60,860 nt of DNA from Candidatus Saccharimonadales bacterium (GCA_041600715.1 JBFIJM010000004.1:1-60860); one strand, 5' to 3'; positions 5,425-57,417 are shown, numbered from the stretch's first letter. Translations and numbers: made by a program. Notes: generated from the sequence alone by a model not told the origin.

Positions 5425-5433
5425 AGTTGTGCG

Positions 5434-6240: not shown

Positions 6241-6259
6241 TATATATTAAAACGAATAG
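6241..6259. promoter_or_regulatory. 19-nt divergent intergenic region beginning TATATAT
   Basis: Lies between the ATG of 5434..6240 (-) and the ATG of 6260..6934 (+). Confidence 0.35.
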
Positions 6260-7456: not shown

Positions 7457-7495
7457 AAGTATATTAACACAAAAAAATTATAAGGCTTTATCCAA

Positions 7496-12526: not shown

Positions 12527-12539
12527 CCGAAAGCAGAGT

Positions 12540-13646: not shown

Positions 13647-13702
13647 GCTTATATAGTCATCTGTATATTCTATTAAATTTGAAAACGTCAAATTAATATA
13701 CG

Positions 13703-22451: not shown

Positions 22452-23024
<573 letters not shown>

Positions 23025-24257: not shown

Positions 24258-24361
24258 TATATTATATTATAGGTTTCAAATTTAGCATGAATTCCTATAT
24301 CCGTCTAAAAAAAAATTGAATACATAATATGTATTATTAAACAACCTCTAATTAAGAGATT

Positions 24362-40109: not shown

Positions 40110-40157
40110 TTGCTTAGTTAGTTGCTTAGTTAGTTGCTTAGTTAGTTGCTTAGTTAG
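40102..40157. repeat. Intergenic 12-bp tandem repeat (TTAGTTAGTTGC) x ~4.6
   Basis: Read directly from the sequence. Every unit carries TAG twice on the plus strand and TAA twice on the minus strand. Confidence 0.9.
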
Positions 40158-40182
40158 CCATTTTTTTTGTCGTGTATTAAAA

Positions 40183-42030
40183 ATGAATACAATCAATAGT
40201 ATATCAGTGATGTCCCGCGCAGTTGTCTCCCATGCAGTTTTGACTCGAAGTGGATTATTTATTGATGAGGAGTATTTTGCTAATAAGGGACAAATTGGCA
40301 AGGTAAAGAAAAGTTTTACAGTCACTGTCATTGAACTAAAAAAATACATTAAGACAATGTCATTATTTAAGTATAGTAAAGTGGGTGGAGCCAAATATGT
40401 GATACTCCCAAGACACGGAGGTGTAAAAATTCTTAAGGGTTTAGAGAAAAAGTTGGGATTACCCCCACTCATAGTCGACAACCAAATGATGTCGGGCGAA
40501 CCACCTAAATTTACCTTTACCCGTGAAGGTAAATTTCGAGGTAACCAAAAAATCATTTTCGATCATATTATGAAGAATTATTTTAGTCCATCAATGGTAT
40601 CGAGGGGGTTGGCCAGTTTAATCCTTCAACTAGATACTGGCCAGGGTAAAAGTTATATCGGGGCCGCCCTCATTGCTCATCTACAGGTTAAGACTCTTAT
40701 TATTTGTCATAGTACCGCTGTTGCATCAGACTGGATTGATAAAACTCTTCGGGGGGAATTTCCGAACAATGTGATTGGCCAGTATAATGGTAGCTCGAAA
40801 AAAGACGGGGACATAGTTGTTGCTATTGTAAATAGTCTTATCATGGACGATATGAAAGTTTTGACAAATAAGTCGAAGAAAACATACGTGAAAATGACTC
40901 CGACAGACTTTTTTAGTCGGTTTGGTCTTATTATCTATGATGAAACACAAAAATATAATAGTAAAAGCTTTAGCAAAGTATTTTGGCGAGCGCAGGCCCC
41001 TTATGTTATAGGGCTTAGTGCAACCCCATCCCGACATGAATTCCATAAAATATCAAAGTGGGGAATAGGCGATGTCTTAGACGCGAAGACAATCCCGGGA
41101 TATTCAACAAAAAAGAGTAAATTTAAAGGCGAGGTTGGTATGATAAAATATCACGCACCCGCGAAGTATTCCCAACTATTACTCAATGAGAAACTGGAAA
41201 TATTAAATGTCGCTGCCACAATAAATATGATAACTGAGGACCCTTATAGAAATAGTATCATTATTGATAAGATGACCGAGCTAATTTCCGAAGGCCTAAA
41301 CATATTCGTATTCTCCGATAGAAAGGCTCACCTACATGAACTAAAGGCTGGGCTAATCGAAAACGGTAAACGATATGTGAAATCAATAGAAAATCCCTTA
41401 ACTGCTCATGGAATCCCTAAAACAGTAGTTGCATTGATACGAAAATATGTATTCTATTGTCATTCGTCGATTCTTATTGGAGGCGGGGGTAGTGGCAAAG
41501 TCGGGCGCGAACGTATGGAGAAGGCTGAGAGATTTTCCAATGTAATCTTAACAACATACCCATATATGGACACTGGTAAATCCATTCCAAAGATGAACGC
41601 TATTATGTTATGTACACCTCGCAAGAATAATAGTGAGCAATCGATAGGGCGTATCTTGAGGTTAGGCTCAGATGAAAGTACTGTTCGGCAAATAATAGAT
41701 GTTGTTGACTGGGGTACTCGACTTAAAAATCAATGGTACACACGTAAAAAATTTTATACATCTCGGGGATATGAAATCGCATCGACAGAATATGACTGCC
41801 GGGATAGATTCATTGGCGACGCCCGACAAGATGATTGTGTGGTTGGATCAAGTATTATTTCTAAGACAAAACCGGTAAAAAATACGACTATTAATAGTAG
41901 CGAGGCTGATAACTCCGATTCAGAGTCGGGGTCTGCTTCTGAATCTGAAGAAGCCATACGCGAACGAGGGAAGGATATGTTTAAGAAGTACTCTGCGTTC
42001 TTAGATCAGGACTCTTCGGGGTCGGATTAG
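40183..42030 (+). CDS. A18/XPB-like SF2 DNA helicase
   Basis: Motif I LDTGQGKSYIGA, motif II LIIYDETQKY, motif III GLSATPSR, motif VI QSIGRILRLG. Acidic Ser-rich tail. Confidence 0.75.
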   Translation: MNTINSISVMSRAVVSHAVLTRSGLFIDEEYFANKGQIGKVKKSFTVTVIELKKYIKTMSLFKYSKVGGAKYVILPRHGGVKILKGLEKKLGLPPLIVDNQMMSGEPPKFTFTREGKFRGNQKIIFDHIMKNYFSPSMVSRGLASLILQLDTGQGKSYIGAALIAHLQVKTLIICHSTAVASDWIDKTLRGEFPNNVIGQYNGSSKKDGDIVVAIVNSLIMDDMKVLTNKSKKTYVKMTPTDFFSRFGLIIYDETQKYNSKSFSKVFWRAQAPYVIGLSATPSRHEFHKISKWGIGDVLDAKTIPGYSTKKSKFKGEVGMIKYHAPAKYSQLLLNEKLEILNVAATINMITEDPYRNSIIIDKMTELISEGLNIFVFSDRKAHLHELKAGLIENGKRYVKSIENPLTAHGIPKTVVALIRKYVFYCHSSILIGGGGSGKVGRERMEKAERFSNVILTTYPYMDTGKSIPKMNAIMLCTPRKNNSEQSIGRILRLGSDESTVRQIIDVVDWGTRLKNQWYTRKKFYTSRGYEIASTEYDCRDRFIGDARQDDCVVGSSIISKTKPVKNTTINSSEADNSDSESGSASESEEAIRERGKDMFKKYSAFLDQDSSGSD

Positions 42031-42087
42031 CATATAAAAAAATTGAAAAAATATAATGCTATATAGTACTAACAGTACATAAAGATA

Positions 42088-42849
42088 ATGGCTTATCGTT
42101 CGGCTTCCAACCAAACACCTACCATCCCCTATAATGGACAGGGTCAAAAATATAACCAATATACTTCTCGTCACCACCTTTGTAGATGTGATCAATGCAT
42201 GCACCCGCGACCATTTCAGCATCATGCCGATCACCATGATAATAAATCTACAGGGTATAATACTGGACCCCACCCCGACCATCGGCAACCACGTGCACCA
42301 CGGCAGCTACGTGCACCACGGCAACCACGTGCACCACGGCAACCACATCATCCTAGTCAAGATTCGCCCCATTCTCAGCGTAGCAGTAGTCCGGCACAGC
42401 CTAAACAACCACAAGCTATGGCTAAATCTAAGAAGTTAGGTGTGGACACTGTAATGGCAATAGTTAACATTGATAAGGGTACTGTATTCGTGCGAGTCTC
42501 AAATAAGGGGCAGATATCAGTCCAAGCTGCGATGGCCAAGCGTGGCGAGACTCAATTCAACACCGTTGAGCGGGTCTTAATGGACGAAACTGGTAATCGC
42601 CCGAGATCTAATAGCGAACTCACCTCTTTAAAGAGCGAGAAGTTTCCTGAGGTCGCGTTCGTTGCTTTCCAGGATCCGTCATTCGAGCTTCGTCATTTTC
42701 GTCCGTCCCATTATTTCAAGGATAAAATACAATGCTTAATTGAAGTCCCACTTGCCGACCTTGCTAAAGGTGCTGTCACGGATCAGATGCGAGTTCCTCC
42801 ACACGCCCTTGCCGTTGAGTTTGCACAACTCCTCCTTGCGAAAAAGTGA
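42088..42849 (+). CDS. Hypothetical protein with His/Pro/Gln-rich N-terminus and (PRAPRQ)n repeat
   Basis: 253-aa ORF. An 18-bp repeat lies at 42284..42347. Confidence 0.6.
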   Translation: MAYRSASNQTPTIPYNGQGQKYNQYTSRHHLCRCDQCMHPRPFQHHADHHDNKSTGYNTGPHPDHRQPRAPRQLRAPRQPRAPRQPHHPSQDSPHSQRSSSPAQPKQPQAMAKSKKLGVDTVMAIVNIDKGTVFVRVSNKGQISVQAAMAKRGETQFNTVERVLMDETGNRPRSNSELTSLKSEKFPEVAFVAFQDPSFELRHFRPSHYFKDKIQCLIEVPLADLAKGAVTDQMRVPPHALAVEFAQLLLAKK

Positions 42850-42884
42850 AAAAATAATGTTTGATTTTTTTACAAATACTTACA

Positions 42885-43445
42885 TTATACATTGGAAAGT
42901 TGCTTATATAATCCTGCAAACCATACCCATCCGAACAGTTGAAGTACAACACCTGTTAATTTTAAGCAATGCGATGAAAGTAGAAACATTTGATAAGAAA
43001 AGATAACGACGCGGAATATCAAAAATGATATCATTTCGATAATAATCCAACATCTAATATTTTTTTTACCGAAGTTCGACGTGTGATGAATTATTGCATA
43101 TGCGAAATACAGAGGTATATTAGACAGCTCTAGTATAAAAAATGAATACATGCATATGGATTTATCTATTCCAAATTCAGAGCTTAGTAAATATATAGAT
43201 CCTAAGTGATGTAAGAAGTACATACTTAATATTCGCGAATTAAATAGATCATATACAAAAAATCCAATCGATATATTTGTATTTATATCTGATGAGTTTA
43301 TTAAATATTGTAACAGAACACTTGCACAATGAATAATACTCACCATATTTATATGGAATTTATTAGACTGTATAGGAAATATAAAAGGCAACGTCTTATG
43401 GATGATCATCCATAGAATGGTATATTGAACAACGGTGTCGATCAT
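42885..43445 (-). CDS. Multi-pass integral membrane protein
   Basis: 186-aa ORF with about six hydrophobic segments. Confidence 0.6.
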   Translation of the reverse strand: MIDTVVQYTILWMIIHKTLPFIFPIQSNKFHINMVSIIHCASVLLQYLINSSDINTNISIGFFVYDLFNSRILSMYFLHHLGSIYLLSSEFGIDKSICMYSFFILELSNIPLYFAYAIIHHTSNFGKKNIRCWIIIEMISFLIFRVVIFSYQMFLLSSHCLKLTGVVLQLFGWVWFAGLYKQLSNV

Positions 43446-43469
43446 TATGTATATGCAAATAATTATCCA

Positions 43470-45086
43470 TTATCCATTACTTAAATCATAAATATTATAT
43501 TTGTCTCCTCGAAATGTAACAACCTTGATTATTTTATATGTTGCAAAGAGTTTATTCGATATTAAATTATCAATATCAACCATTGCTAAGATCTTCAACT
43601 TTGGAAATTCTCCGATGAAGATAGGTAATATTTCCTTACCATATCCTTTACCTTGATATGGAGCATCGATTAATATACGAATAAATCTCTTATCTTTAAG
43701 GAATTTATGTTCAAATCCAGCGATGTAGTATCCTATAAATCCAATTAATTCGCCAGGTTGACATCTATCATTCAAACATATAGCGTAAAATCTGGCATAT
43801 GTTTCATTTTTATACTCCCGGATGTAGTTTGTCAACTGCACACGGACCTGAGATAGATTTTTAGTCTTGCCTGACGCTATATACTTCATGTTGTCCGGAT
43901 TATTTTGTATATCGTACATGCGCGGAAGGTCGGCCATTGTAAATTCACGAAGGGATATTCTTGATTTTTTTGTTGATGATTTGGTCGACTTAACTTTACT
44001 TTCTGACTTAACCTTACCTCCAGTTTTATCCTTAATAGTCTTAGCCTTTGACCAAATAAACATAGGTTGAGCTCGGGAAGTTTTGTGTTTTTCCGCGTAT
44101 GGAATAATACCCATATATTTAGCCTTAAATTTAGGGTCTTCCATATATTTTATCATCTCGTGAACATAGGTTTCATAACTCATACTATTTATCACCATAC
44201 ACATTATACCTTTCCCGTCATCCTTCACATTATCCCAAGCCTTTTCAAGATAAGGCTTGAAGAATTCTTCGGTCCATTTAGACTCGGATGTATGCTTAAT
44301 CGTTGACTGTTTCGCGTCTTGGGAGTATATCTCCATCTTAAAGTATGGTGGAGATGTGAACACAAGATCATACTTAGGTAAGTCCGGTGGCCGAACAAAC
44401 TCTTCAAATGGCATCTCAAATAGTTGGACTTGTCCGCCTAAATCAACCTCAAAGAACTCACATATATCTTTATATCGTGGGTGTACGACGGGATTAGGAT
44501 CGACTCCTGTGTAACTAGAGCCTGTTGCTATAGCGGCAATTAATCGGTCGCCCCATCCGGCTGACGGGTCAAGGACAGATATTGGAGAGGTTTTATAGGA
44601 CGGGAAAAATAGCTGTATTATTGCTATCATATTTGATGGGCGGAAGCTAGTACATTCGCGGGCATCTTTGATGGCCCACCGTGTCTCGATCAAATTTGGT
44701 CCGTCAATCACCCCATATTCTTTAAGACATTTCTCAGCTAGTTCCTTTGTCTTGCTATGAAAATACTCCCATGGTGAATACTTTGATCCAGCAAATTTAC
44801 ACTTCATGCGTTCCTCTTCCATGAACATGTCAGATAAGATATTAAAATCTTCGTAGTCACTTGGAAGATTTAATAGTAGCTTATTTTCTCCCTTGAATCC
44901 TGGTGTAACCTTAATATTGGCTATGGTATACTTCAGAGTCTTAAATCGAGATTTAAAGTTATATTCTTTTAAATTAGCCATCATATCCTTAATATCATCA
45001 TCTGTCTTGTTATCTCTTTTCGTAGGGAACTTGATAAGACCCTTCTTGAAATCTTTTAAAAATTGATTTACATCATTGTACATCAT
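43470..45086 (-). CDS. Fusion of a (D/N/S)PPY-family SAM-dependent methyltransferase with a GNAT acetyltransferase
   Basis: The N-terminal two-thirds carry SVLDPSAGWGDRLIAA (SAM motif I) followed by DLVFTSPPYF (motif IV, SPPY). The C-terminal ~170 aa carry the GNAT motif A, IDAPYQGKGYGKEIL. A Lys/Ser-rich linker joins them. Confidence 0.7.
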   Translation of the reverse strand: MMYNDVNQFLKDFKKGLIKFPTKRDNKTDDDIKDMMANLKEYNFKSRFKTLKYTIANIKVTPGFKGENKLLLNLPSDYEDFNILSDMFMEEERMKCKFAGSKYSPWEYFHSKTKELAEKCLKEYGVIDGPNLIETRWAIKDARECTSFRPSNMIAIIQLFFPSYKTSPISVLDPSAGWGDRLIAAIATGSSYTGVDPNPVVHPRYKDICEFFEVDLGGQVQLFEMPFEEFVRPPDLPKYDLVFTSPPYFKMEIYSQDAKQSTIKHTSESKWTEEFFKPYLEKAWDNVKDDGKGIMCMVINSMSYETYVHEMIKYMEDPKFKAKYMGIIPYAEKHKTSRAQPMFIWSKAKTIKDKTGGKVKSESKVKSTKSSTKKSRISLREFTMADLPRMYDIQNNPDNMKYIASGKTKNLSQVRVQLTNYIREYKNETYARFYAICLNDRCQPGELIGFIGYYIAGFEHKFLKDKRFIRILIDAPYQGKGYGKEILPIFIGEFPKLKILAMVDIDNLISNKLFATYKIIKVVTFRGDKYNIYDLSNG

Positions 45087-45150
45087 TGGATTATTTTGTT
45101 GCTCTTAGTAACAAAATTGTCTATATATACTGTTGAATTCAAATTTTAAC

Positions 45151-48100
45151 ATGTCCAAACCAACATTTATTATAGATGCAGGCGCAGGCGAGGATAAATC
45201 GACTGGATCAAACATGTCCCTGAATTTAAAAAAAGCATATATTCTTAAGCGTAAACTAGAGATGTTTGGATGGAAAGATGTTGGTGTTAGACTGGGTAAA
45301 CCACCAAAATTCGTCGACTTGCTCTATCTCGACTCGTTCGCCGATTGGAGAAAATATAAAAACACTCGATGTTATTTTAAAAACCTAGTCAAAGATTCAA
45401 TACTGTCCATAAGTGATAAATCTTTACTATATCATAACTTAGGCAAAATCGATTCGCATATAAGGGACACTTTCATGATGAGACAAATTGACGTTAACAT
45501 TACAGACTCGTCAAGCATCGAGGCATGTGAAAAATTGTTCGATGGGAGGATGTGGATTTTTAAACCAGTCGCCGGATGGAGTGGTAAAGGTATACAAGTT
45601 TTTAATAGTTACAACGGATTTAAAGAATACGCAGAATCGATTGACGTAGAAAACTGGAAATTTTTTAAATCAAAATCTTCAAGAGCTTCAATTTGGGTAC
45701 TCTCTGAATATATAGAAAATCCATTACTTATAGACGGCCATAAATTTCACTTGAGGCTTTATTTTACAGTGTATAAAAATACTAAAGGAGTAAAATCGTT
45801 CCTACACAACACTGGAATTATAATGGTGTCTAAATTTAAATATGATTTGTCATCCAGCGACATAGTAATACATAGTGTTCATAGCGACGACTCAGAAAAA
45901 CACGAGTTTCCTCGTGAGTATATTAAGTACTTCACTGAAAAAAATGCTAAAAAATTACATAACGACCTCCTAAAAATATTCAAAGCAGTCTCGAAGATAG
46001 ATTTTATGGAATGTTTTGAGGAGTCAAAAAAATGTTTTTATGATTTTGGATGTGATGTTATGATCACGGATAAATATGAGACCAAGCTTATCGAGATAAA
46101 CGACAAAGCTGGCATATCAAGTTTCATAACTATCGATAAATTTGGTAAATGTTATGTACCAAATTTGATGAAATTGATATTTGATCCTGTATTCTTTCCT
46201 AAATTGACCAACCCCGAGAAAAAAATACGGTATACCGATACGGATTATACTCTTATAAGTGTTGGAGAAGGTGGAGATGTAAATAAATCTACCACAAAAA
46301 CCTTTACAGTTTATCTATACAATACAGACACAGGATTTCAAAAACATTCTATTGATTATTTTAATAGATATGGATGGACACACATCCCCATTAGTCGAAA
46401 CATGAAGGGTCATATTAATTATCTCGACTATTCTCTAGACCATTGGCGATATTTTCAGAATGTAACTTCAGACATACGTTCGTCAGCTGACCCCTCACGA
46501 AAAAGATGGAAAGATAAATCTAGTCTATACAATGTTTTGGGGTCGACCCCACGGGGTAAACTTATCCGTGACAAATTCATGATGAAGCAATATGATGTTG
46601 ATTCGAATAATATCATGGGTGAATCGAAGCAATCCGAGAAGTTTAAAGAATTTAAGAACATATTTGATGGACGGAAATATATATTAAAACCAATAACAGG
46701 ATGGAAGGGTCTTGGTATAAAAATTACGGCATCACATAATGAAGCGTTGAAACATTTTAACCAAACTAACCAAATGGACTGGATTTATCACAAAGATAAA
46801 CAATCTGAATCAACTAAATGGGTTATTGCTGAGTACATTGATAACCCTCTTTTAATCCAAGGATGTAAATTTCATATCAGGGCATATTTTATGGTCTACC
46901 TGGATTCAGGATTTAAGACTGGAGCCACTCCGAAAATTAAAGGATATTTATTTAAGACAGGAATAATTATGCAAGCCATAAAAAAGTATAGACCGTCAAA
47001 TTACGATGACGATCAGGTACATAATATCCACGCTGGCAATTCAATAAAAAAAATATATCCAAATACTTTTATAAAAGAATTTGGACTCGCAACCACCAAT
47101 AAAATTAATACTAATATGCAGGAGTATTTTATTGAATTGTTCAATATTATAAACACAGGTTGTTACCCTGAAACTAAGAATTGCTTTACTCTTTACGGCG
47201 CTGACATCATGTTTGATGCGTCGTTTAATGTGAAAATACTCGAGATAAATTCATCTATCGGACGCAAATCTTTATCTGAAAAAAAAGAAGCATATGAATT
47301 TATGAACAACATATTTTCCATATGTATCGTACCAAACTATGGAAAACCTGCGAAATGGAAAGACCTCAAAGCTTATTGGGTAATCGGAGAAAAGTGTATC
47401 GATGATAAAAAATCGGCAGGTTCGATTGGTAAAATATCAGGGTCGGAGCGTCAAAAAACATATCTTATAGATTTAAAAGTCAAAGATTCTAAACCGTTTG
47501 AAAAGCAATTAACGAAGTATCTTGACGATAATGGGTGGGTTAACCACTTAGATTTATTTGCACCAGATGATGGAATCGACCACACAGTCGGTCTACTAAT
47601 ACATAAAAAATATGATTGGAAATCATATGACAAATATAAATCCACAATCCATGCATCTACAGAAAATGAACGGTCAATCACAAATAAATCAGCAATTTAT
47701 GATATCTCCGGAATAAAAAAATATATGATGCCCCAGTATACTATTGATTCAAGGAACAGCGATGATCTTGAAAGGGTGAAGAAATATTTTACTGGTAAAA
47801 TTCGATTTATAGTTAAACCTATGATGGGGTCCATTGGAATGGGTATATTTATAGCAAATACCCATCAAGCGTTGTTGAAAAATTTAGGTAGTAGCCATGT
47901 AGTGATTTATGATATGTATAAAAAAAGCGCTGATGTATATAGATGGATATTAGCCGAATATATTGAAAACCCTCTACTACTCAAGGGGCGTAAGTTTCAT
48001 ATACGTGTATTCTATCTTGTGACTGTGATTAATGGCGTCATTCGAGCATACATATATGGTAAAAATTACATAATGTACGCGACAAAGAAATATAATAAAA

Positions 48101-49698
48101 CATCAACTGACATACTGGTGCATAATATACATTCCGATAATTCTTCTAAATGTGTATTTCCCAAATGCTACACCGACGAATTTGGTCAAGCGAAGACTGA
48201 TAAATTAATAAAAGACTTGAAGGATATCTTTACTATTATTTTTAAGGTGTATAAATCTAAATGTTATGATAGCTCGGACCATTGTTACAACGTTTTTGGT
48301 GCTGACATAATGGTTACCGATAAATATGAAACGAAAATCATAGAGCTAAATCAAGAACCTGGTAAAAAGTATTTATCTGAGTCGACCGAATTATTCGATC
48401 ATTATACGCAAAATCTACAAGAGCTTGTGATTAATCCAGTATTTGGCCCTCCAACCACTGAGTGGAAAGATAAACATTCATATGTGCAAGTTGGTGGGCC
48501 TAAGCTCAGCAATGGTAAATCTTCATCATCGCAGATAGGAGGAGATAGAGATGCGAGTGATGCGAGTGATGCGAGTGATGACGAAACTAAAAAACAAATT
48601 TATGAAGGTGAAAAACACACCTTCGCCGTTGAGTCGGATTATTTTGCCCCATACCTAAATAAGAAAATAATAGAACTTGGTGCTGGGATGTGGGAAGAAT
48701 TTTCTTTATCGTCGTCGGCCAGACAAGGTGATCAAAAAATATCATTCCTCTACATGGATAATCTATCACTTCCTTGGAAAAAATATAAAAATACCCATGC
48801 AACTGTAAAAAATGTAGTCGATAATACTAAATATAGCATTGCCGATAAAGCAAACTTATATCAAAATCTTGCCGGGCCTGTGCGTAAGAAATTTATGCCA
48901 CTTCAGTATACGATAGATTTAGGTACAGAACCGGATGGCTTCACCAAATGGTGTGAGTGTAACTGTGAGAAATATCGTAAAATTATTAAACACGACATGT
49001 GGATGCTTAAACCAGTAACTGGGTACAAAGGTATTGGGATAAAAATGGTGGATAATTTCGGCGACTTCAAACGTCATCTTAGAGAGCATCGTCAAGAAGA
49101 TCATGCACATGGGTCTGAGCGATCCAAACGAGTTGGTGTATGGGTCCTATCTAAATACATAGATCCACCGCTGCTGTTTAAAGGGCATAAATTTCATATA
49201 CGTCTATATTATTTAGTTAGTCAAATCGAGGGCAAAGTACATGGGTATATATTTAAATCTGGCCACCTTTATATTTCAAAAAAGAAATATAAAATGTCTA
49301 GCCATTCGACAGACATCCATAATTTGCATCTTGATAATTCTAACATAGATTTATTCCCTGAAAGTTACGCCAAAGAATTTGGTGTTGATGCATGTGTTAA
49401 ATTATACACGGAAATCTATAAAATGTTTCAAGGAGTATTCGACATAACTAAAATTGGATGTTTCGACGACTCTTCAAATTGTTACTATATCTATGGAGCC
49501 GACATTATGGTTACAGAAGACGGGTGTCCCAAACTACTGGAGGTTAATACCTCTCCACATCTTGGTGTTATGAACATTAATAAAACGTTAGCCAACCGAT
49601 ATGTCACTAATATATTCTCATTAGTATTAAATCCTATATTCGGCGAACCACCTGGATTTCCTAAGAATAATGATTATATTCTCATTGGGGAGAAATAA
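45151..49698 (+). CDS. Protein with four tandem tubulin-tyrosine-ligase-like (TTL, ATP-grasp) modules
   Basis: The track ORF opens on TTG at 45133; the first ATG is 45151. Four modules start at about nt 45151, 46290, 47455 and 48610. Each carries W(I/M)xKP..G..G.GI, WV(L/I)(S/A)(E/K)YI(E/D).PLL..G.KFH(L/I)R.Y and (F/Y)G.D(V/I)M......K(L/I)(L/I)E(I/L/V)N. Confidence 0.8.
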   Translation: MSKPTFIIDAGAGEDKSTGSNMSLNLKKAYILKRKLEMFGWKDVGVRLGKPPKFVDLLYLDSFADWRKYKNTRCYFKNLVKDSILSISDKSLLYHNLGKIDSHIRDTFMMRQIDVNITDSSSIEACEKLFDGRMWIFKPVAGWSGKGIQVFNSYNGFKEYAESIDVENWKFFKSKSSRASIWVLSEYIENPLLIDGHKFHLRLYFTVYKNTKGVKSFLHNTGIIMVSKFKYDLSSSDIVIHSVHSDDSEKHEFPREYIKYFTEKNAKKLHNDLLKIFKAVSKIDFMECFEESKKCFYDFGCDVMITDKYETKLIEINDKAGISSFITIDKFGKCYVPNLMKLIFDPVFFPKLTNPEKKIRYTDTDYTLISVGEGGDVNKSTTKTFTVYLYNTDTGFQKHSIDYFNRYGWTHIPISRNMKGHINYLDYSLDHWRYFQNVTSDIRSSADPSRKRWKDKSSLYNVLGSTPRGKLIRDKFMMKQYDVDSNNIMGESKQSEKFKEFKNIFDGRKYILKPITGWKGLGIKITASHNEALKHFNQTNQMDWIYHKDKQSESTKWVIAEYIDNPLLIQGCKFHIRAYFMVYLDSGFKTGATPKIKGYLFKTGIIMQAIKKYRPSNYDDDQVHNIHAGNSIKKIYPNTFIKEFGLATTNKINTNMQEYFIELFNIINTGCYPETKNCFTLYGADIMFDASFNVKILEINSSIGRKSLSEKKEAYEFMNNIFSICIVPNYGKPAKWKDLKAYWVIGEKCIDDKKSAGSIGKISGSERQKTYLIDLKVKDSKPFEKQLTKYLDDNGWVNHLDLFAPDDGIDHTVGLLIHKKYDWKSYDKYKSTIHASTENERSITNKSAIYDISGIKKYMMPQYTIDSRNSDDLERVKKYFTGKIRFIVKPMMGSIGMGIFIANTHQALLKNLGSSHVVIYDMYKKSADVYRWILAEYIENPLLLKGRKFHIRVFYLVTVINGVIRAYIYGKNYIMYATKKYNKTSTDILVHNIHSDNSSKCVFPKCYTDEFGQAKTDKLIKDLKDIFTIIFKVYKSKCYDSSDHCYNVFGADIMVTDKYETKIIELNQEPGKKYLSESTELFDHYTQNLQELVINPVFGPPTTEWKDKHSYVQVGGPKLSNGKSSSSQIGGDRDASDASDASDDETKKQIYEGEKHTFAVESDYFAPYLNKKIIELGAGMWEEFSLSSSARQGDQKISFLYMDNLSLPWKKYKNTHATVKNVVDNTKYSIADKANLYQNLAGPVRKKFMPLQYTIDLGTEPDGFTKWCECNCEKYRKIIKHDMWMLKPVTGYKGIGIKMVDNFGDFKRHLREHRQEDHAHGSERSKRVGVWVLSKYIDPPLLFKGHKFHIRLYYLVSQIEGKVHGYIFKSGHLYISKKKYKMSSHSTDIHNLHLDNSNIDLFPESYAKEFGVDACVKLYTEIYKMFQGVFDITKIGCFDDSSNCYYIYGADIMVTEDGCPKLLEVNTSPHLGVMNINKTLANRYVTNIFSLVLNPIFGEPPGFPKNNDYILIGEK

Positions 49699-49701
49699 AG
49701 G

Positions 49702-51006
49702 TTATTTTATAATCACCGGATGTAGTTTATCAAAATTATTTATTAACTCGACCAAATATGTCGGTCTATATTTCTGCCGGATCTTTCTATATAATAAATA
49801 TTTATTATACAATGACAATTTGTAGTTGTCGTCCATATATTTTTTTTTTATATATTCAATATTTTCGGGTGTCACTAAAAATTTATGTTCATCGGTATAT
49901 TTTTTAAACTCTGCGGAATTCTCATCGATAGTGGGTGGATTTTTAACAAGTTCTTGCATCTTTATATTCGTACGAAATAAAATCATCGCTAAGAGGGCAA
50001 CTCTGAACCCTTTATTTTCATCTAACTGCATATCTTTCATGAAATCGCCCACATCAATAATTGGATTTGCCAATGTAAATAATATAATAAATAAAGACCA
50101 CGACTTACATAATTCATCGTTACCTTGTAATGTTATTAAGTTTCCCTTCCATTTCCACCGGCGAATCCCGAATTTGTCGAAAGTTCTGTAAAACCACTTT
50201 TTTACAATATTATATCTTATATCGCTACCCGTTTCTGGATTAGCGTCGGGATTACCTTCAATATTTATGCCACCATGTGGCTCAAAATAATAAATTGTCT
50301 TAGTTTTAGAATTGATCAATATAGTATTGCTATGCGATGCCACTATACCAGCGTACGACCATGATAAATTAATCACTGATATTTCATCAGACGTGAAAGA
50401 CTTAACCATAAATCTTTCCAATTCATTCATTTGATTAACTATATGACCTACATTGGTTAAATCAAAAAAGGACACACGGTATCTTTTATATTCATCTGGC
50501 TCTGTTATAGATGTTATGGGGATATGCAAATCTTGTAATTTCTCCGCTACATCGTAAGGTTTAAACGCGGCTTGTAATGTAAAAGAAAGCACCTGTTTGC
50601 CAATAACTAGGTTAATAACTTGATCAATGCGATTGGTCCTGTCGGCTATAAACGATGCTATATTTCCGAACATACCCTTTTCTTCACCGCGGTTGTTTAT
50701 AAAATCATAGAATTGACGCTTGATCAGTGAATCTCCAGACTTAAAAATAGTAGAATATTCCTGCGGCCATGGATAGTTATAATAATATATAGTGCGTGAT
50801 GTTAAAAATTGACCTATCCAAAAGAATGGAGAATTTGAAAAATTAGTTGATTGTCCTAACGGAATAGCTAATTTATAATTACTTTGACATTTAATATTAC
50901 ATTCCTCAAATGTAAGTCTTCCATGGTAAGGATGTCGTTCACATTTAAACTTATCCTTTTTGACATAACAATAATAATCTTCTGGTGGAGTAGGTATAAA
51001 TTCCAT
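49702..51006 (-). CDS. Putative Ulp1/SUMO-protease-like (adenain-fold) cysteine protease
   Basis: ASHSNTILINSKTKTIYYFEPHGG fits H.....(I/L)......(I)YY(F)(D/E)..G, and LQGNDELCKSWSLFII fits Q.N..(D/E)C......, giving His-Asp/Glu-Gln-Cys order as in C48, poxvirus I7 and ASFV S273R-type proteases. Confidence 0.5.
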   Translation of the reverse strand: MEFIPTPPEDYYCYVKKDKFKCERHPYHGRLTFEECNIKCQSNYKLAIPLGQSTNFSNSPFFWIGQFLTSRTIYYYNYPWPQEYSTIFKSGDSLIKRQFYDFINNRGEEKGMFGNIASFIADRTNRIDQVINLVIGKQVLSFTLQAAFKPYDVAEKLQDLHIPITSITEPDEYKRYRVSFFDLTNVGHIVNQMNELERFMVKSFTSDEISVINLSWSYAGIVASHSNTILINSKTKTIYYFEPHGGINIEGNPDANPETGSDIRYNIVKKWFYRTFDKFGIRRWKWKGNLITLQGNDELCKSWSLFIILFTLANPIIDVGDFMKDMQLDENKGFRVALLAMILFRTNIKMQELVKNPPTIDENSAEFKKYTDEHKFLVTPENIEYIKKKYMDDNYKLSLYNKYLLYRKIRQKYRPTYLVELINNFDKLHPVIIK

Positions 51007-51012
51007 TATATA
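51007..51012. promoter_or_regulatory. TATATA as the entire spacer between two divergent ATGs
   Basis: The sequence reads CAT(51004..51006) TATATA ATG(51013..51015). The same motif sits 0-25 nt upstream of many other ATGs in the window. Confidence 0.35.
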
Positions 51013-51246
51013 ATGATAAATTATTATGATTTATTATTTGCTTTTATTATTGTACTGTTGATATTATCAATATGTATATTTGCTCTTGATTATGGCATCA
51101 ATTTATTCGAATCTATAGAAAAATCAAAAAAAATGACAGGACTAGTATTATCTATAACACTACTGATAGGTGTATTTATTATTCGACGTACTGTTTTTTA
51201 TTACCAAACATCATCAAATACAATTATAGGATCTATGGAAGATTAA
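51013..51246 (+). CDS. Small two-TM membrane protein
   Basis: The track ORF 50884.. overlaps the protease gene. The first non-overlapping ATG is 51013, separated from the divergent ATG (51004..51006) by only TATATA. Confidence 0.45.
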   Translation: MINYYDLLFAFIIVLLILSICIFALDYGINLFESIEKSKKMTGLVLSITLLIGVFIIRRTVFYYQTSSNTIIGSMED

Positions 51247-51247
51247 T

Positions 51248-51484
51248 TTAATCAAAAGGATATAAAAATGGCCACAAGCATATAAATTTAACGCATCGTT
51301 GTCTTTTTTTCATATTCATATATTCTTCTAATGTATACACTGATGCTTTATTAGTTATGTGCCATTCTCTTTTATACGTTACCAAGTTTGGTGATGTTAT
51401 ATAATTTATAGTAGCGCCTGTTCCCATATACACGATTAACGGAGATATAGTCTTGTTAAGGTATCGAATAACGTTGCTCACCAT
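51248..51484 (-). CDS. Hypothetical small protein
   Basis: 78-aa ORF with an ATG start. Confidence 0.4.
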   Translation of the reverse strand: MVSNVIRYLNKTISPLIVYMGTGATINYITSPNLVTYKREWHITNKASVYTLEEYMNMKKRQRCVKFICLWPFLYPFD

Positions 51485-51511
51485 TTTATATGTTAAAAAA
51501 ATTACATACCT

Positions 51512-52123
51512 TTAGATGTATAAGCCGCATTTGATACATATCCATGTTGTCTGAGTAGACACATGGAGGTCGACGCCATAGAATACTCCCATATTATGAA
51601 AGGCGTCGGTTTCTAAATTCACAGATCGATATTCCCAAGTGTGTTCTGGGGGAGACAGACGTTGGCGACTAGCGAGTTCCCGGGCACTCTGAGTTGTACA
51701 TGCTGTAATTTTATCAAGAGTTTTTCGCATTGCTGTGAGGCCGTAGCTGTATTCTTGATGCCTTACACGTAAGTTGGAGATTGCAAGCTCACGGTTCTCA
51801 AGACACGTGATTGTCGGTACAATATCGTCGTCAGCCTGCAGACTTAAACAAGCATTGGTTATGTTTTTATCATGTTTAGTTACCGCTTTAGATATTCCCG
51901 ACAAGATGATCTGGGTAGTTATGATATGGCCTGCTCTACATTTAATAGCATTACTTACTTGCCCGTCGTATAAATTTACAGTTCGATGGGTGTCCGGATC
52001 GTTTGACGTTGCGACCACAACTGGAGGGACCCATTTCGACTCACTTGAGGTGGTCGAGGTGGTCGAGGTGGTCGAGGTGGTCGAGGTGGTCGAGGTGGTC
52101 GAGGTGGTCGAAGACGAAAACAT
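51512..52123 (-). CDS. Hypothetical Cys-rich protein with N-terminal (TST)n repeat
   Basis: The track ORF opens on TTG at 52165; the first ATG is 52123. A 9-bp repeat x7 lies at 52047..52109. Confidence 0.55.
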   Translation of the reverse strand: MFSSSTTSTTSTTSTTSTTSTTSTTSSESKWVPPVVVATSNDPDTHRTVNLYDGQVSNAIKCRAGHIITTQIILSGISKAVTKHDKNITNACLSLQADDDIVPTITCLENRELAISNLRVRHQEYSYGLTAMRKTLDKITACTTQSARELASRQRLSPPEHTWEYRSVNLETDAFHNMGVFYGVDLHVSTQTTWICIKCGLYI

Positions 52124-52170: not shown

Positions 52171-52758
52171 TTAATTAACATTGTCATCGTTTTCGCCGCC
52201 ACCTTCACCGGGTGTGATATCGATTACTTGATCATCACCCAAGATGCTGATGACTTCATTATTTTCCTCTCTGTTTCTGATTTTAGAGTACATGTCTACA
52301 CATTCGGCGTGTTTTTCATCGACAGGTATAAGTGATTGGTCGTTGTTTTCAAAAATTCGCATGCTTCCGCTAGCATCATAATATACTCCGCTACCACTTT
52401 CATTATCGCCAGGCCACCCGTTATAGTCGTAAAACACGCCTGTCGGTCCACGAAAAATTCGCAAACGCCAGTCTGGAGATATCCCTTCCCAATCAGGGAG
52501 GTCGTCGTCAGAATTGTCCTCGTCATCTTCATCATCTTCATCATCGCCATTATCAACCTTCATAAGCTGATATAGATCGCATTTTTCTTCGATGCCATAT
52601 ATATCGTCGAGATCTTTATATATCATATCAAACAATCGATTTCGGTCTTCATTTTTTAAGTCTGATATTCTTTTTTTACGTTCCGCCTCGGTATCTTCGC
52701 TCGGAAAATCAATGATTTCTGGCTCAGTCGCGAGTAACAGTTTCTTAAGTGCCTCCAT
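52171..52758 (-). CDS. Hypothetical acidic protein
   Basis: 195-aa ORF with a DDEDDEDDED stretch. Confidence 0.55.
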   Translation of the reverse strand: MEALKKLLLATEPEIIDFPSEDTEAERKKRISDLKNEDRNRLFDMIYKDLDDIYGIEEKCDLYQLMKVDNGDDEDDEDDEDNSDDDLPDWEGISPDWRLRIFRGPTGVFYDYNGWPGDNESGSGVYYDASGSMRIFENNDQSLIPVDEKHAECVDMYSKIRNREENNEVISILGDDQVIDITPGEGGGENDDNVN

Positions 52759-52799: not shown

Positions 52800-55187
52800 T
52801 TATAAGAGAGATTCGAGGAATTCATCATCACTCATAGTTTTCCGTTCATATTTTTGACATATTAAGTACCTAACCATATTCTCCAAGTTAGAGAATGAAC
52901 AATGTATACACCACTCTTCTCCTGTTAATAAATTTAATACCCGAAGGTTAGTTATGTTAGCGAGCCACCCGTATACTGCGCATTGTAGAAAATGGGTATC
53001 TGTGAGGGTATGTACACATTTTAATTCCCATATCACTTGATCGGTCGACGTGGTCGACGTGGTCGACGTGGTCGACGTGGTCGACGTGGTCGACGTGGTC
53101 GACGTGGTCGACGTGGTCGACGTGGTCGACGTGGTCGACGTGGTCGACGTGGTCATACTCCTGCCCATCGCCAATACATCTACGCGTCCAATAATAGTCC
53201 TCCCAAGGATATGTTTACTATACTCAACTTCGAAGCGAGCATTTTTGGACAACCTATTTGATAAACGAGCGACAGCTGCCATCAATTTCTTTTTACCAAT
53301 CCACGTATAATTATGTATCTGGTTTAATTTATGTACGTAGTTTGACTGTGTAGCGCAATATTCATTAGCAAGTTTAAGAAGAGTTTGTGGGTTGAATGGT
53401 ATAGGCTTTTCACCGATAGTCATTTTCCCGGTCATCTTATATTCAAGGAATGCCGGTATAGCAACGCCGGTGATTTCCCCAACCTGTTCATATAGATCTT
53501 GTTGTTTTGTCTTGATCGGTATATCAATAATAACACCTGGGTCAACGGTTTGTTCAGGTACAATATAGCTTAATGCATGGTTGATAACTTTTTGAGGGAG
53601 ATGTTTAAGTAGGTTAGTTACGCCGATCTTATTATTTTCGCCACCATCGCTTATCTTTGGAGCGATTCTATTCATAAGCCTAAAAGCACACGTCTTCGGT
53701 ACTTGCTCGACATTTATAAATGGCAAATAATCATGCTCGTAGTGGTGAAATAACGTTAATAATTCGGTTGCTCTAGTAATTGCTACGTATAATGTATTTG
53801 GGCAGACCATTGGATTTTCTCCCCTGGCGTAGAATTTAAAGTAACTTTCATCGAAATTAAATACAATAATACATTTACGCTCAAGCCCTTTCGCTTGATG
53901 AAAGGTAATGAATGATAACTTACCCTTAAGCACGTCATCATCGAGTCTTTCCTCGTCAGACCCCGGCACAAATATGGGTATACCAAAACCTGATAAAGTG
54001 TTCGCCAGTCGTATCACCGGTGATTTTGATGATTTAACACTAGGACTAAGTATAAAGATGTCTTCAGGTTTGTATCTGATAAGATACAGTTGAAGAATCT
54101 CGGCCACCCTGCTTGAAAAAGCATTACACACGTAGTATTGAACATCTGGCCCGGATTTCACCGCATTCATGCGGTTACCTTTGAGGCATGCCAGGTTAAT
54201 AAAATTTGCCATCTGATGTGTTATACGGTATGAAGTCGATAATTTCTTAGATGTCCAGGTAGCTGGTTGTGAGCCTGCCGAACTAACCGGCAAGCTCCAT
54301 ATTCTATCGACGAGAGTAATAAATCGATGGTCCGCCCCGTTAAATTGATATATTGACTGATTCTTATCTCCAAGTATTATAAGTTGACATATACCATTTT
54401 GTCGTATTATCATCGACATGAATTTATAATATAATAAAGACATGTCTTGGGCTTCATCGATGATTATAATGTCATAATGCCGGCTTGGTAAATCTTCCTC
54501 ACCTAAATCTATGGGGTCAAGATCATCGCTCGACTCTTCGTCTTCGTCTTCGTCTTCGTCTTCGTCTTCGTCTTCGTCTTCGTCTTCGTCTTCGTCTTCG
54601 TCTTCCGACCCGATGGCAAATTTTTTACCTGCTTCGTTATCATCTATGTCACTACCATCTCCATACATGGAGACTGTATTTGTTGATTTCGTCTTTATTG
54701 AGTTGCGAACTACTCTGATTAATCCAGCATCGGTCGAGCACGACGTGTTATAATATTTATACCCGTACGAATGGTAACTATGTACTTCGATATTTTTTAA
54801 ACCTATTTGTTGCACTTTTACTCGGGTCTCCATTTTTAGTTTAGCATTATAGGTTATCAGAAGGATTTTTTTATCCAAGTTAGCCCTAGCGAGATGTAGA
54901 ATTGTGGTTGTCTTTCCACTGCCGGCAATCGCATCAACAACAATATTACCCTTTACCTCTATAATTTCCTTCTGCTCTAGTGAGGGTTTCGGTAAAATAC
55001 TCACCCACATGGATGATCGGGATATTTTTTTATCAGTCGGAGGATGCTCACCAAAAATGTACTTGTACTCAGGGAGCGAGGTTAATATTTTACCCTCGCA
55101 CATATTAGTAAACACTAACTCATCAGAGTCTTCGTCAGATTCATCATCTGAATCGATCATGGAACGTACGAGTTTTAGTCTACTCAT
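52800..55187 (-). CDS. UvrD/Rep-like SF1 helicase fused to a C-terminal PD-(D/E)xK (RecB/Cas4-like) nuclease
   Basis: Walker A AIAGSGKTTT (nt ~54911..54927), motif II IIIDEAQD, FITFHQAKGLE, LYVAITRATE. The C-terminus has GRVDVL ... ELKCV ... QCAVYGW (D, ExK and QxxxY nuclease motifs). The (ED)n repeat is at 54535..54600 and the (TST)12 repeat at 53044..53151. Confidence 0.8.
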   Translation of the reverse strand: MSRLKLVRSMIDSDDESDEDSDELVFTNMCEGKILTSLPEYKYIFGEHPPTDKKISRSSMWVSILPKPSLEQKEIIEVKGNIVVDAIAGSGKTTTILHLARANLDKKILLITYNAKLKMETRVKVQQIGLKNIEVHSYHSYGYKYYNTSCSTDAGLIRVVRNSIKTKSTNTVSMYGDGSDIDDNEAGKKFAIGSEDEDEDEDEDEDEDEDEDEDEDEESSDDLDPIDLGEEDLPSRHYDIIIIDEAQDMSLLYYKFMSMIIRQNGICQLIILGDKNQSIYQFNGADHRFITLVDRIWSLPVSSAGSQPATWTSKKLSTSYRITHQMANFINLACLKGNRMNAVKSGPDVQYYVCNAFSSRVAEILQLYLIRYKPEDIFILSPSVKSSKSPVIRLANTLSGFGIPIFVPGSDEERLDDDVLKGKLSFITFHQAKGLERKCIIVFNFDESYFKFYARGENPMVCPNTLYVAITRATELLTLFHHYEHDYLPFINVEQVPKTCAFRLMNRIAPKISDGGENNKIGVTNLLKHLPQKVINHALSYIVPEQTVDPGVIIDIPIKTKQQDLYEQVGEITGVAIPAFLEYKMTGKMTIGEKPIPFNPQTLLKLANEYCATQSNYVHKLNQIHNYTWIGKKKLMAAVARLSNRLSKNARFEVEYSKHILGRTIIGRVDVLAMGRSMTTSTTSTTSTTSTTSTTSTTSTTSTTSTTSTTSTTSTDQVIWELKCVHTLTDTHFLQCAVYGWLANITNLRVLNLLTGEEWCIHCSFSNLENMVRYLICQKYERKTMSDDEFLESLL
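53044..53151. repeat. 9-bp in-frame tandem repeat (GTCGACGTG) x12
   Basis: Counted unit by unit. It encodes (TST)n on the minus strand, inside the nuclease domain of 52800..55187. Confidence 0.95.
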
Positions 55188-55931: not shown

Positions 55932-55989
55932 ATTGTACTAAACAGAAAATTGAAATATACATATAACATATAACATATAACAATTTTAG

Positions 55990-57417
55990 ATGGCAAAAGA
56001 ACAAGCTCTATCGGGCATATCGGGCGACTGGAAGAAGGTGTTGAACGGCGGAAAAGCCGCTAAACTACTAGTAAAAGTGTTTGAAGAACTCAAGGACGTT
56101 GATGAAAAAACCTTGTGTCCAAGCATAAAGGACATCTTTAATGCGTTTAGATTCCCATTTGAGCAAGTATCGGTGATTATCATAGGACAAGATCCATATC
56201 ATACCCCTGGCCACGCTCATGGTTTAAGTTTTAGCTCTTTGGCAGACACGGTACCGCCATCCCTTCACAAAATTTATAAATGTCTACAGACAGATGGATT
56301 AATTGGGTCAGATGCAGGTCCCGCATCGGGGGACCTGACCCCTTTGCGAGATCAAGGGGTACTTTTACTCAATAGTGCATTGACTACTGTTCACGGTAAA
56401 CCTGGTGCTCATATTAAGATTTGGAGTGCCTACATCGACTCCGTAATACATCGAATAAACGCTCTTTCTCTAAAGAAAGATAATAAACTTATATACTTGC
56501 TTTGGGGCGCCGATGCGCAGAAAAAGGCTGATGCAAAAAAGAAAAACCTAATGGACAAACACATAGTACTTACTGCAGCGCATCCAATGGCTTACCTAAA
56601 AGATTCCGACGAATTATCGTTCGTCCAGTGCGGACACTTCCTGCAGGCGAATAAATTGCTGAAGGGCATGGATAAACATGTTATTGACTGGGATTGGTCG
56701 TCTTCGTCGTCTTCGTCGCCTGAGTCGCCTGCGTCGCCTGAGTCGCCTGCGTCGCCTGCGTCGCCTGCGTCGCCTGCGTCGCCTGCGTCGCCTGCCGTGA
56801 CTACAGAAAAATCCAGGGCACAGATTCGCAGATATTTTACAGGAGGTGAACGAACATGTGTATGCTTTACCGATGGGTCATGCAGTCCAAATAAGAGATG
56901 TCCGGAAGCGCAAGGTGGATACGCAACTGTATTTACTCAAGGATTGTTAAACGATACTCGCATCTACGGATCTCTAAATACTGAAAAGAACTTTGCGTCA
57001 AATATGCGTGCAGAAGGATATGCTATTCTTCGAGGTCTTCAATATGCAAGTGATGAAAAGCATATTGAAGACTGGGATGTCTTTGTTGTCGTCACCGATA
57101 ATCTTAAATGGATGGAAATGATAACTCAGGACATGGCATCTTGGTCACCAGAAAAATTCGCCACTCAGTCAAATCCGGATATTACTTTACCACTATGGCA
57201 GCTATGGAAGAAGATGGAGTTTGAAAATGAAAAGAAGATGATTATTCTCCACATGAAATCCCACGATAAAGATGGGTGGAGCAGGTACCCTGATGGTAGC
57301 TACGAGAAATATTGTTACGAGCAAAATAAGTACGTAGATATTTTAGCTAAATATGCTCGTGAAGAAATGGACCGAGGTGATGAGTCTATTGATGCAGCTG
57401 AATATGAATCAGAATAA
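55990..57417 (+). CDS. Fusion of a family-1 uracil-DNA glycosylase with RNase H1
   Basis: UDG part: VIIIGQDPYHTPGHAHGLSFS (water-activating GQDPYH loop) and TAAHPMAYL (HPSPLS-equivalent). RNase H part: CFTDGSC...GGYATVF, NMRAEGYAILRGLQYA, VVVTDNLKWMEMI, HMKSH...NKYVDILAKYA (D-E-D-D pattern). The (SPA/SPE)9 linker is encoded at 56716..56796. Confidence 0.8.
   Translation: MAKEQALSGISGDWKKVLNGGKAAKLLVKVFEELKDVDEKTLCPSIKDIFNAFRFPFEQVSVIIIGQDPYHTPGHAHGLSFSSLADTVPPSLHKIYKCLQTDGLIGSDAGPASGDLTPLRDQGVLLLNSALTTVHGKPGAHIKIWSAYIDSVIHRINALSLKKDNKLIYLLWGADAQKKADAKKKNLMDKHIVLTAAHPMAYLKDSDELSFVQCGHFLQANKLLKGMDKHVIDWDWSSSSSSSPESPASPESPASPASPASPASPASPAVTTEKSRAQIRRYFTGGERTCVCFTDGSCSPNKRCPEAQGGYATVFTQGLLNDTRIYGSLNTEKNFASNMRAEGYAILRGLQYASDEKHIEDWDVFVVVTDNLKWMEMITQDMASWSPEKFATQSNPDITLPLWQLWKKMEFENEKKMIILHMKSHDKDGWSRYPDGSYEKYCYEQNKYVDILAKYAREEMDRGDESIDAAEYESE

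Follow-up and report, generated by a model that had tools for sequence, protein, structure and literature searches.

A giant-virus gene with four tandem modules of the tubulin tyrosine ligase family beside a divergent methyltransferase-GNAT gene

What might a virus do with a protein in which four ligase modules belonging to the family of tubulin tyrosine ligase (TTL) are strung together in one chain? This question is raised by an open reading frame (ORF) at 45151..49698 (+) in contig JBFIJM010000004.1 (assembly GCA_041600715.1, filed under Candidatus Saccharimonadales bacterium), of which positions 1-60860, that is, a stretch of 60,860 nucleotides (nt) referred to here as the window, were analyzed. 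An earlier account made from the DNA alone, the sequence-only reading, had proposed that the ORF encodes four maintained, possibly differently specialized ligases that could act on host tubulin or on acidic tails encoded in the same window. We find that the ORF is a genuine single giant-virus gene encoding four complete TTL-family modules in tandem. We favor, with a probability of roughly 0.6, the view that these are ligase modules, linked to a partner protein encoded next door, with a target that is more likely something other than tubulin.

One gene with four TTL-family modules

The ORF listing bears out a single uninterrupted frame at 45133..49698 (+), which encodes 1521 amino acids (aa) from a TTG codon and 1515 aa from the ATG at 45151. 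The latter protein, whose coordinates include the stop codon, has a mass of ~175 kDa and an isoelectric point (pI) of 9.05. Its four modules are ~375 aa each, with working limits of aa 1-372 (45151..46266), 373-748 (46267..47394), 749-1130 (47395..48540), and 1131-1515 (48541..49695), all on the plus strand, and each is recognized by the Pfam TTL profile (E values of 1e-26, 3.6e-24, 4e-28, and 6.9e-30, respectively). A hidden Markov model (HMM) profile built from the four modules sets their limits at aa 2-366, 373-748, 753-1116, and 1132-1515. The count of four modules thus stands, while the starts of modules 2-4 have to be moved 8-22 codons upstream of the earlier estimates, to nt 46267, 47407, and 48544. 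The twelve TTL motif blocks quoted in the sequence-only reading are each present exactly once and at the expected places (block 1 at aa 135/510/886/1284, block 2 at 182/557/932/1331, and block 3 at 299/682/1049/1448), with periods along the ORF of 375, 376, and 398 aa.

As anticipated, the modules have diverged yet kept their motifs, since pairwise alignment gives 30-33% protein identity with all blocks retained. Identity is ~37% in the catalytic core vs. ~25% in the N-terminal domain. The modules are basic (pI 8.0-9.4) and are joined by linkers of 10-40 aa that, as read from the sequence, hold no extra domains. The linker before module 4 is rich in Ser and Asp and contains the sole tandem repeat within the ORF, a 9-nt in-frame unit, GATGCGAGT, repeated 3.4 times (48550..48580, +) and encoding DASDASDAS. 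The C-terminal ends of module 2 (...YWVIGEK) and of the whole protein (...YILIGEK) are alike, which fits a fusion of once-separate genes through loss of stop codons.

DNA similarity between the modules extends over no more than ~60 nt, at ~70-75% identity, which leaves no repeat between them that could collapse, expand, or be misassembled. An independent Logan contig of 11,949 nt (run SRR29257383) is 100% identical to positions 40128-52076 of the window and contains the same 1515-aa gene. The frame remains open over 4.5 kb at ~35% GC, and the module junctions show neither AT-rich spacers nor promoter octamers. One copy of the octamer AAAATTGA, a candidate early-promoter element, lies 85 nt upstream of the ATG (45059..45066, +) and none is found inside the ORF, which fits a single transcription unit.

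Profile searches with each module separately confirm the family assignment, with E values between 1e-24 and 1e-30. The modules score 94.3, 85.9, 98.9, and 104.7 bits against Pfam TTL (PF03133), for a cut-off of 20.1. Assignment to another ATP-grasp family (RimK, glutathione synthetase, D-Ala-D-Ala ligase, or YheC/D) is rejected, since the RimK, GSH-S, YheCD, ATPgrasp_ST, and Dala_Dala_lig profiles all remain under their gathering cut-offs in every module (12-27 vs. 21-31 bits). Structure prediction agrees. An AlphaFold2 model of module 3, based on a 75-sequence alignment, reached a predicted local distance difference test (pLDDT) score of 86.4 and a predicted template modeling (TM) score of 0.86, and its three-domain ATP-grasp fold matches that of TTL. 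When the model was compared with known structures using Foldseek, TTL chains were found over the full length of the module (E 6e-17, TM 0.63-0.71, ~385 columns), together with Pby1 from Kluyveromyces lactis (6y3p, E 6e-16), the latter at an identity of ~19-25%. In the BFVD database, the best viral structural matches (E 2e-24, TM 0.69-0.74) are proteins labeled "TTL family" from Hokovirus, Gaeavirus, Marseillevirus-like metagenome-assembled genomes, ChoanoV1, and CroV.

Among solved structures, the closest relative by sequence is Pby1. In a search of the Protein Data Bank (PDB) with the module profile, Pby1 6y3p came first (E 1.7e-22), and the other hits were TTLL3 (1.3e-16), the second Pby1 structure 6y3z (4.3e-16), TTLL7 (1.4e-14), TTLL6 (2.4e-14), and TTL itself (1.1e-11). 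The values for TTL and TTLL3/6/7 are thus 5-11 orders of magnitude weaker than that of Pby1. A Pfam scan found no SurE domain in the four-module protein. Judged by their sequence, the modules would therefore have Pby1-like chemistry, within a protein that appears to be no ortholog of Pby1.

Active sites and relatives of the modules

The four modules carry the same putative catalytic residues, all reading K-K-H-R-D-E-N with a constant Asp-13-Glu-x-Asn spacing. These are a phosphate-binding Lys, then the Lys, His, and Arg of a KFHxR motif, followed by an Asp, a Glu, and an Asn: K138, K198, H200, R202, D302, E315, and N317 in module 1; K513, K573, H575, R577, D685, E698, and N700 in module 2; K889, K948, H950, R952, D1052, E1065, and N1067 in module 3; and K1287, K1347, H1349, R1351, D1451, E1464, and N1466 in module 4. 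In the profile alignment, the Arg of KFHxR falls on Pby1 R533, and the G-x-D...(13 residues)...E-x-N segment falls on Pby1 D647/E660/N662. In the Pby1 paper, E660 is taken as the counterpart of TTL E331 and R533 as that of TTL R202, and the Mg-binding residues D647 and N662 are found to be conserved as well. We matched TTL D318 to the Asp of the modules because the D-13-E spacing is identical in TTL, where D318 and E331 bind two Mg ions and R202 holds the substrate carboxylate. Predicted ATP-, Mg-, and carboxylate-binding residues are thus present in all four modules.

Retention of conserved columns was used in place of dN/dS since the nearest homolog is at most 37% identical, the modules are ~31% identical to each other, and synonymous sites are saturated. 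We defined 39 columns conserved in at least 75% of 71 stand-alone relatives; modules 1-4 keep 35, 33, 33, and 34 of them, for a stand-alone mean of 34.9. By this measure, the constraint on each module appears equal to that on an enzyme that stands alone. The possibility that the modules are degenerate or pseudo-enzymes is rejected in view of this retention and of the intact active-site set, and four maintained ligase active sites, as initially proposed, is a fair reading of the sequence.

The His of the KFH motif deserves attention. TTLL3, TTLL7, and TTLL6 read KFD(V/L)R at the aligned position in their solved structures, and this Asp of the tubulin-modifying members is replaced by His in all four modules. 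The replacement had been picked out correctly, but other proteins have it too. KFHIR is found in both Pby1 structures, and of 184 modules taken from the 150 best cluster representatives of our search (see below), 142 display K-K-H-R-D-E-N and 21 more R-K-H-R-D-E-N. KFH thus appears to mark a subfamily that comprises the whole viral clade and yeast Pby1. As for Pby1 itself, the structural study found its ATP site and catalytic residues to be conserved, and reported that it is not a tubulin ligase. It binds the Nudix decapping enzyme Dcp2.

To gather relatives, we relied on the module profile in an exhaustive HMMER search, which returned 9136 representatives at E<1e-3, 204 of them at E<1e-30. 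Word-index searches, a method blind at such divergence, had returned only the protein itself when queried with its full length and six metagenomic proteins when queried with the 75-sequence profile. After merging split hits, the best 150 representatives comprise 112 single-, 28 two-, 3 three-, and 2 four-module proteins, in a ranking that over-represents multi-module proteins because bit scores sum over modules. For the same reason, any similar four-module protein should rank within these 150. The only other one is P0119 (1663 aa, on a 70-kb virus-like contig), in which two modules deviate at the KFH motif, so that the window protein appears to be the sole representative among the best 150 with four canonical modules. 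One catalytic domain per chain, which the sequence-only reading stated for cellular TTL and TTLL enzymes, thus holds for the solved TTL and TTLL enzymes and fails for the viral relatives.

Duplication of the TTL module has occurred many times in this clade. In multi-module proteins, 28 of 72 modules find their best BLAST match in another module of the same protein, and other two- and three-module architectures are common to several proteins. The modules of the window protein are each other's best BLAST matches, marginally (161-187 bits vs. up to 184 to outsiders), from which we infer that their duplications are probably lineage-specific and either old or fast-evolving. Relatives also occur in loci from giant-virus metagenome-assembled genomes (GVMAGs) of IMG/VR and in virus-like contexts, where copies may stand side by side as separate genes. 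For example, in GVMAG-M-3300005613-6 (locus L002; likewise L012 and L019), three single-module TTL genes stand in tandem, 47-59% identical to one another and 29-37% to the window modules. Locus L025/L026 (5423-12783) has four consecutive TTL ORFs, and Ga0214919_10000288 (L023 4663-16815 / L029) has at least five consecutive TTL paralogs of ~1000 aa each. The four fused modules are the extreme of a clade-wide amplification trend, which runs from two- to four-module fusions to tandem arrays of three to six genes.

Two side observations concern these loci. In the TTL copies of L023, the TTL domain is followed by weak matches to GNAT, and the long C-terminal regions lack annotation; L002 encodes at 11906-16654 a ribonucleotide reductase large subunit with a LAGLIDADG homing-endonuclease intein and an inserted glutaredoxin domain.

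The partner gene and the possible target

On the opposite strand, 64 bp from the TTL ORF, lies a divergent gene of 538 aa (43470..45086, -), which consists of an N-terminal helical region, a methyltransferase-like region, and a GNAT domain. The methyltransferase-like region (44049..45029, -; aa 20-346) displays motif I LDPSAGWGDRL and motif IV FTSPPYF. It has no significant sequence match in the PDB or in NCBIfam. Its AlphaFold2 model (pLDDT 75.9) corresponds, according to Foldseek, to a generic class-I S-adenosylmethionine-dependent methyltransferase fold with Trm11, METTL16, METTL5, and MnmM among its neighbors, several of which are N-methyltransferases with a (D/N)PP(Y/F) motif. The GNAT domain (43548..43961, -; aa 376-513) is of the RimJ/RimL type (Pfam Acetyltransf_3, E 7e-12).

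The same association is found elsewhere. An ortholog of the partner in L002/L012, 38% identical over its full length (E 5e-98), directly follows the three tandem TTL genes and is itself followed by a second GNAT gene; a search for related loci with the two-sequence partner alignment found nothing beyond this GVMAG. Both domains of the partner also occur fused to TTL modules. The order is methyltransferase-GNAT-TTLx2 in representatives P0045 and P0064, GNAT-methyltransferase-FtsJ-TTLx2 in P0098, methyltransferase-TTLx2 in P0086, TTLx2-methyltransferase in P0005, TTL-methyltransferase in P0074, and TTLx2-GNAT in P0009, and Acetyltransf_3 was found in 12 of the 40 representatives that extend by 130 aa or more beyond their TTL modules. 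Among metagenomic loci, L021 and the L038 group have the methyltransferase fused to TTL, whereas it is adjacent to TTL in L043 and divergent from it in L088 as in the window. The association thus recurs in several lineages and with different domain orders, which is what functional coupling would predict, and the four-module protein probably works together with the product of the divergent gene.

Other TTL fusions involve FtsJ, a cap-type 2'-O-methyltransferase (two representatives), a poly(A) polymerase catalytic subunit (one), an XRN 5'-3' exonuclease (one), and a DEAD-box helicase (one), and a three-module relative adjoins a NUDIX gene. These links to mRNA enzymes were seen in proteins P0013, P0098, P0095, and P0039, with the XRN fusion in one other representative, and at locus L013 5383-6183. 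The partners are few, but all belong to mRNA metabolism, which recalls the binding of Pby1 to Dcp2.

From the integrity of the ORF, its family, fold, and residues, the copying habit of its clade, and the gene links, we infer how the protein might act, that is, its catalysis, the cooperation of its modules and partner, and its target. The gene would have arisen by duplication and fusion within a virus-specific TTL clade that habitually amplifies this enzyme. From the homology to TTL and Pby1, each module would be expected to bind ATP-Mg and phosphorylate a carboxylate that the conserved Arg holds in place, either a protein C terminus or a Glu side chain. The resulting acyl-phosphate would then be attacked by the amine of an amino acid, which would thereby be ligated to the carboxylate. 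The polypeptide would offer four independent active sites, most likely working on one or a few targets, and might divide the work between chain initiation and elongation, as distinct TTLLs do on tubulin, or among several sites of modification. The partner would add methyl and acetyl marks to the same target. This target is probably a protein of the gene-expression machinery or another non-cytoskeletal protein, rather than tubulin, because of the kinship with Pby1, the nature of the fusion partners, and linkers too short to accommodate accessory microtubule-binding domains. It is possible, although we would not count on it, that the ligase and the methyltransferase-GNAT protein form an unrecognized "tail-writing" cassette for post-translational modification, with which the virus puts amino acids, methyl groups, and acetyl groups on mRNA-processing or translation proteins rather than on tubulin, the four sites sharing the work by initiating vs. 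elongating chains or by adding different amino acids.

Several points weigh against the favored view. The main caveat on mechanism is that no member of the KFH branch, Pby1 included, has a demonstrated enzymatic activity, and a catalytic-Glu mutant of Pby1 still complements in yeast. The closest homolog is 37% identical, and purifying selection is not measurable by dN/dS. The structural model covers one of the four modules, module 3. Of the 22 locus groups that remained after dereplication and offered at least 6 kb of sequence, 4 show the link to the methyltransferase, which is therefore recurrent rather than universal. Finally, the fusions to mRNA enzymes occur in one or two representatives each.

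The best-surviving rival is that the modules tyrosinate, glutamylate, and/or glycylate host tubulin tails and thereby reshape microtubules for viral transport or factory formation. We consider it unlikely. The modules do belong to the TTL family, adopt the TTL fold, and are basic, as expected for binding to acidic tails, and published commentary on viral TTL assumes a cytoskeletal role by default; yet their closest solved relative by sequence (E 1.7e-22, vs. 1e-11 for TTL) is a KFH protein reported not to be a tubulin ligase. Nor do the associated domains suit tubulin. A ligase paired with an acetyltransferase would not be absurd there, since alpha-TAT1 is a GNAT-fold enzyme that acts on tubulin, but the GNAT domain of the partner is of the RimJ/L type and not of the alpha-TAT type. 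TTLL glutamylases need extra microtubule-binding domains, for which linkers of 10-40 aa leave no room, and the fusion partners, RNA-processing enzymes and an N-methyltransferase-like domain, include none that is cytoskeletal. Nothing in these associations points to host tubulin, the first of the two targets considered in the sequence-only reading.

The second, the supposedly many acidic repeat tails of the window, fares no better. Four or five ORFs do contain runs rich in Asp and Glu (22452-23024, 52171-52758, 52800-55187, and an ORF from 59969), but three runs are internal, a fourth lies close to the end of an ORF that is truncated at the window boundary, and there is no complete C-terminal tail. 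Beyond the presence of these few repeats, which are mostly internal low-complexity inserts, there is no support for them as ligase targets, and we rejected this candidate.

It is improbable that some or all of the modules mainly bind or scaffold, as has been suggested for Pby1, with four of them making a multivalent adaptor. In Pby1, the E693Q mutant of the catalytic Glu still rescued the growth defect in yeast and a Dcp2-binding mutant did not. The NUDIX gene beside the three-module relative and the lack of shown activity across the KFH clade would also fit such a role. Against this, all four modules and 142 of the 184 clade modules retain the complete set of seven active-site residues despite ~30% identity, which is the pattern predicted by selection on catalysis.

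More improbable still is a ribosome-independent assembly line in which the four ligases would build a peptide or polyamide for the partner to N-methylate or N-acetylate. Four ligase sites genetically linked to an N-methyltransferase-like domain and an acyltransferase could be read this way, and the ATP-grasp superfamily includes free amino acid ligases. To our knowledge, however, all characterized TTL-family members act on protein carboxylates; the Arg that holds such a substrate is conserved here, and no transporter or precursor gene is evident among the annotated neighbors.

The artefact against which the sequence-only reading had cautioned, that tandem TTL genes were joined in error or that assembly collapsed or expanded a repeat, has a negligible chance of being true, for although relatives hold copies as separate tandem genes (for example, at 5283-6455, 6532-7701, and 7869-8912 in L002) and both module 2 and the protein end in ...IGEK, it is ruled out by the absence of DNA repeats between modules and by the identical independent contig, and the single open frame with its featureless junctions speaks against it as well.

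The giant-virus window and known systems

The window belongs to a mimivirus-like giant virus (Nucleocytoviricota). Its genes, densely packed at 33-48% GC, encode an mRNA capping enzyme, several SNF2/D6-D11-type helicases, a UvrD helicase, a deoxynucleoside monophosphate kinase, and WD40, pentapeptide-repeat, and dual-specificity-phosphatase proteins. There are no tRNAs in the window. The octamer AAAATTGA, which we take to be the mimivirid early-promoter motif, occurs 20 times vs. 9.6 expected, a number reached in none of 100 shuffles. Most copies precede an ORF start by a few tens of bases, for example at 3502-3509 (-), 4754-4761 (+), 24312-24319 (+), 42039-42046 (+), and 55946-55953 (+). This enrichment suggests an Imitervirales-like virus.

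Around the TTL gene and its partner, several ORFs have no Pfam or NCBIfam match: a 434-aa ORF (49702-51006, -) that is convergent with the TTL gene and 3 nt away from it, and a 253-aa ORF and a 186-aa hydrophobic ORF (42088-43445) beside the pair. Farther away, a 990-aa ORF (13703-16675, +) combines a class-I methyltransferase (aa 150-310) with a VP39-like cap 2'-O-methyltransferase (aa 395-507), a domain of the poxvirus-type poly(A)-polymerase regulatory kind, and adjoins the mRNA capping enzyme gene (17098-19848). A 475-aa ORF (55990-57417, +) joins a uracil-DNA glycosylase (aa 59-219) to an RNase H (aa 290-454), and 35327-36373 (-) encodes a strong full-length homolog of the MYG1 exonuclease (UPF0160, E 7e-66), which is unexpected in a viral genome.

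Repeats are frequent in the window. The two neighboring WD40 genes at 41-991 and 1297-2100 contain units of ~120 nt (repeats 221-985 and 1529-2094), which are young or homogenized since they are still ~80% identical in DNA. In-frame tandem repeats with periods of 6-33 nt are found at 21044-21306, 22547-22814, 24638-24762, 53043-53154, 54535-54605, 56697-56795, and 58092-58845. These include an (ED)n run in a UvrD-type helicase and a Glu/Ala/Lys-type repeat in an unannotated 831-aa ORF (57490-59985), in a region with a GC skew of 0.30 and an AT skew of 0.28.

As for what was already known, TTL enzymes and their occurrence in giant viruses are established, and the locus reveals no new principle. 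A study in J Virol 2025 (PMC11915834) counts TTL, with its deep viral clade, among the eukaryotic signature proteins of giant viruses and takes its role to concern microtubules; a 2026 paper annotates TTL in ChlorV and assumes the same. On multi-TTL-domain proteins and viral TTL biochemistry, the literature that we searched offered two annotation-level mentions, and no description of a multi-module TTL architecture, of the coupling of viral TTL to a methyltransferase-GNAT protein or to mRNA domains, or of a KFH/Pby1-type signature in the viral clade. Giant-virus TTL genes have thus been read as microtubule tools on the family name alone. The locus and its relatives suggest otherwise, through their Pby1-type active-site variant, their repeated amplification, and their ties to an N-methyltransferase-like domain, a RimJ/L-type GNAT, and, in a few representatives, mRNA enzymes. 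The locus may thereby correct the default tubulin reading of viral TTL and give an experimental entry to an orphan branch. If active, the enzymes would constitute a virus-encoded protein-modification system, and soluble self-contained modules would offer a tractable route into the KFH branch of the family. Should the two proteins prove to be a tail-writing cassette, the orphan chemistry of the Pby1 type would become accessible for the first time; should tubulin turn out to be the substrate, the tubulin code would be written in a new way, by a ligase with four heads.

The nearest known systems are the TTL proteins of other giant viruses (Hokovirus HKV1 A0A1V0SG79, CroV, ChoanoV1, Gaeavirus, and ChlorV), which belong to the same Pfam family and occur in the same kind of genome. 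Metagenomic members of the viral clade share the KFH(I/L/F)R signature with the window protein. However, annotated giant-virus TTL proteins have 300-900 aa and are described merely as "TTL family, possibly cytoskeletal," whereas the window protein concatenates four intact modules.

A functional analogy, and only that, is offered by the bacterial modifiers of ribosomal proteins: RimK is an ATP-grasp glutamyl ligase, RimJ and RimL are GNAT enzymes, and PrmB and PrmC are NPPY methyltransferases. The same three enzyme classes are genetically linked in the window, and the methyltransferase of the partner has an xPP[YF] motif, as in the PrmB/PrmC class. The ligase, however, is of the TTL type, unlike RimK, whose Pfam profile scores below threshold, and a ribosomal-protein target would be suggested by analogy alone.

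Closer in sequence is the C-terminal ATP-grasp domain of Pby1 (6y3p, 6y3z), which aligns over nearly a whole module and has the KFHIR motif, the Arg, and the Asp/Glu/Asn set in common with it. In Pby1, a single such domain stands behind a SurE-like N-terminal domain and the protein binds Dcp2, in contrast to the window protein with its four modules and no SurE.

Lastly, TTL and TTLL3/6/7 share with the window modules the three-domain ATP-grasp fold, the phosphate-binding Lys, the substrate-binding Arg, and the Mg-binding Asp/Glu/Asn. TTL is a 377-aa protein, and its solved chains of ~380 aa are close in size to one window module. The solved enzymes have a KFD(L/V)R motif and one catalytic domain per chain, whereas the window protein has KFH(L/I)R and four.

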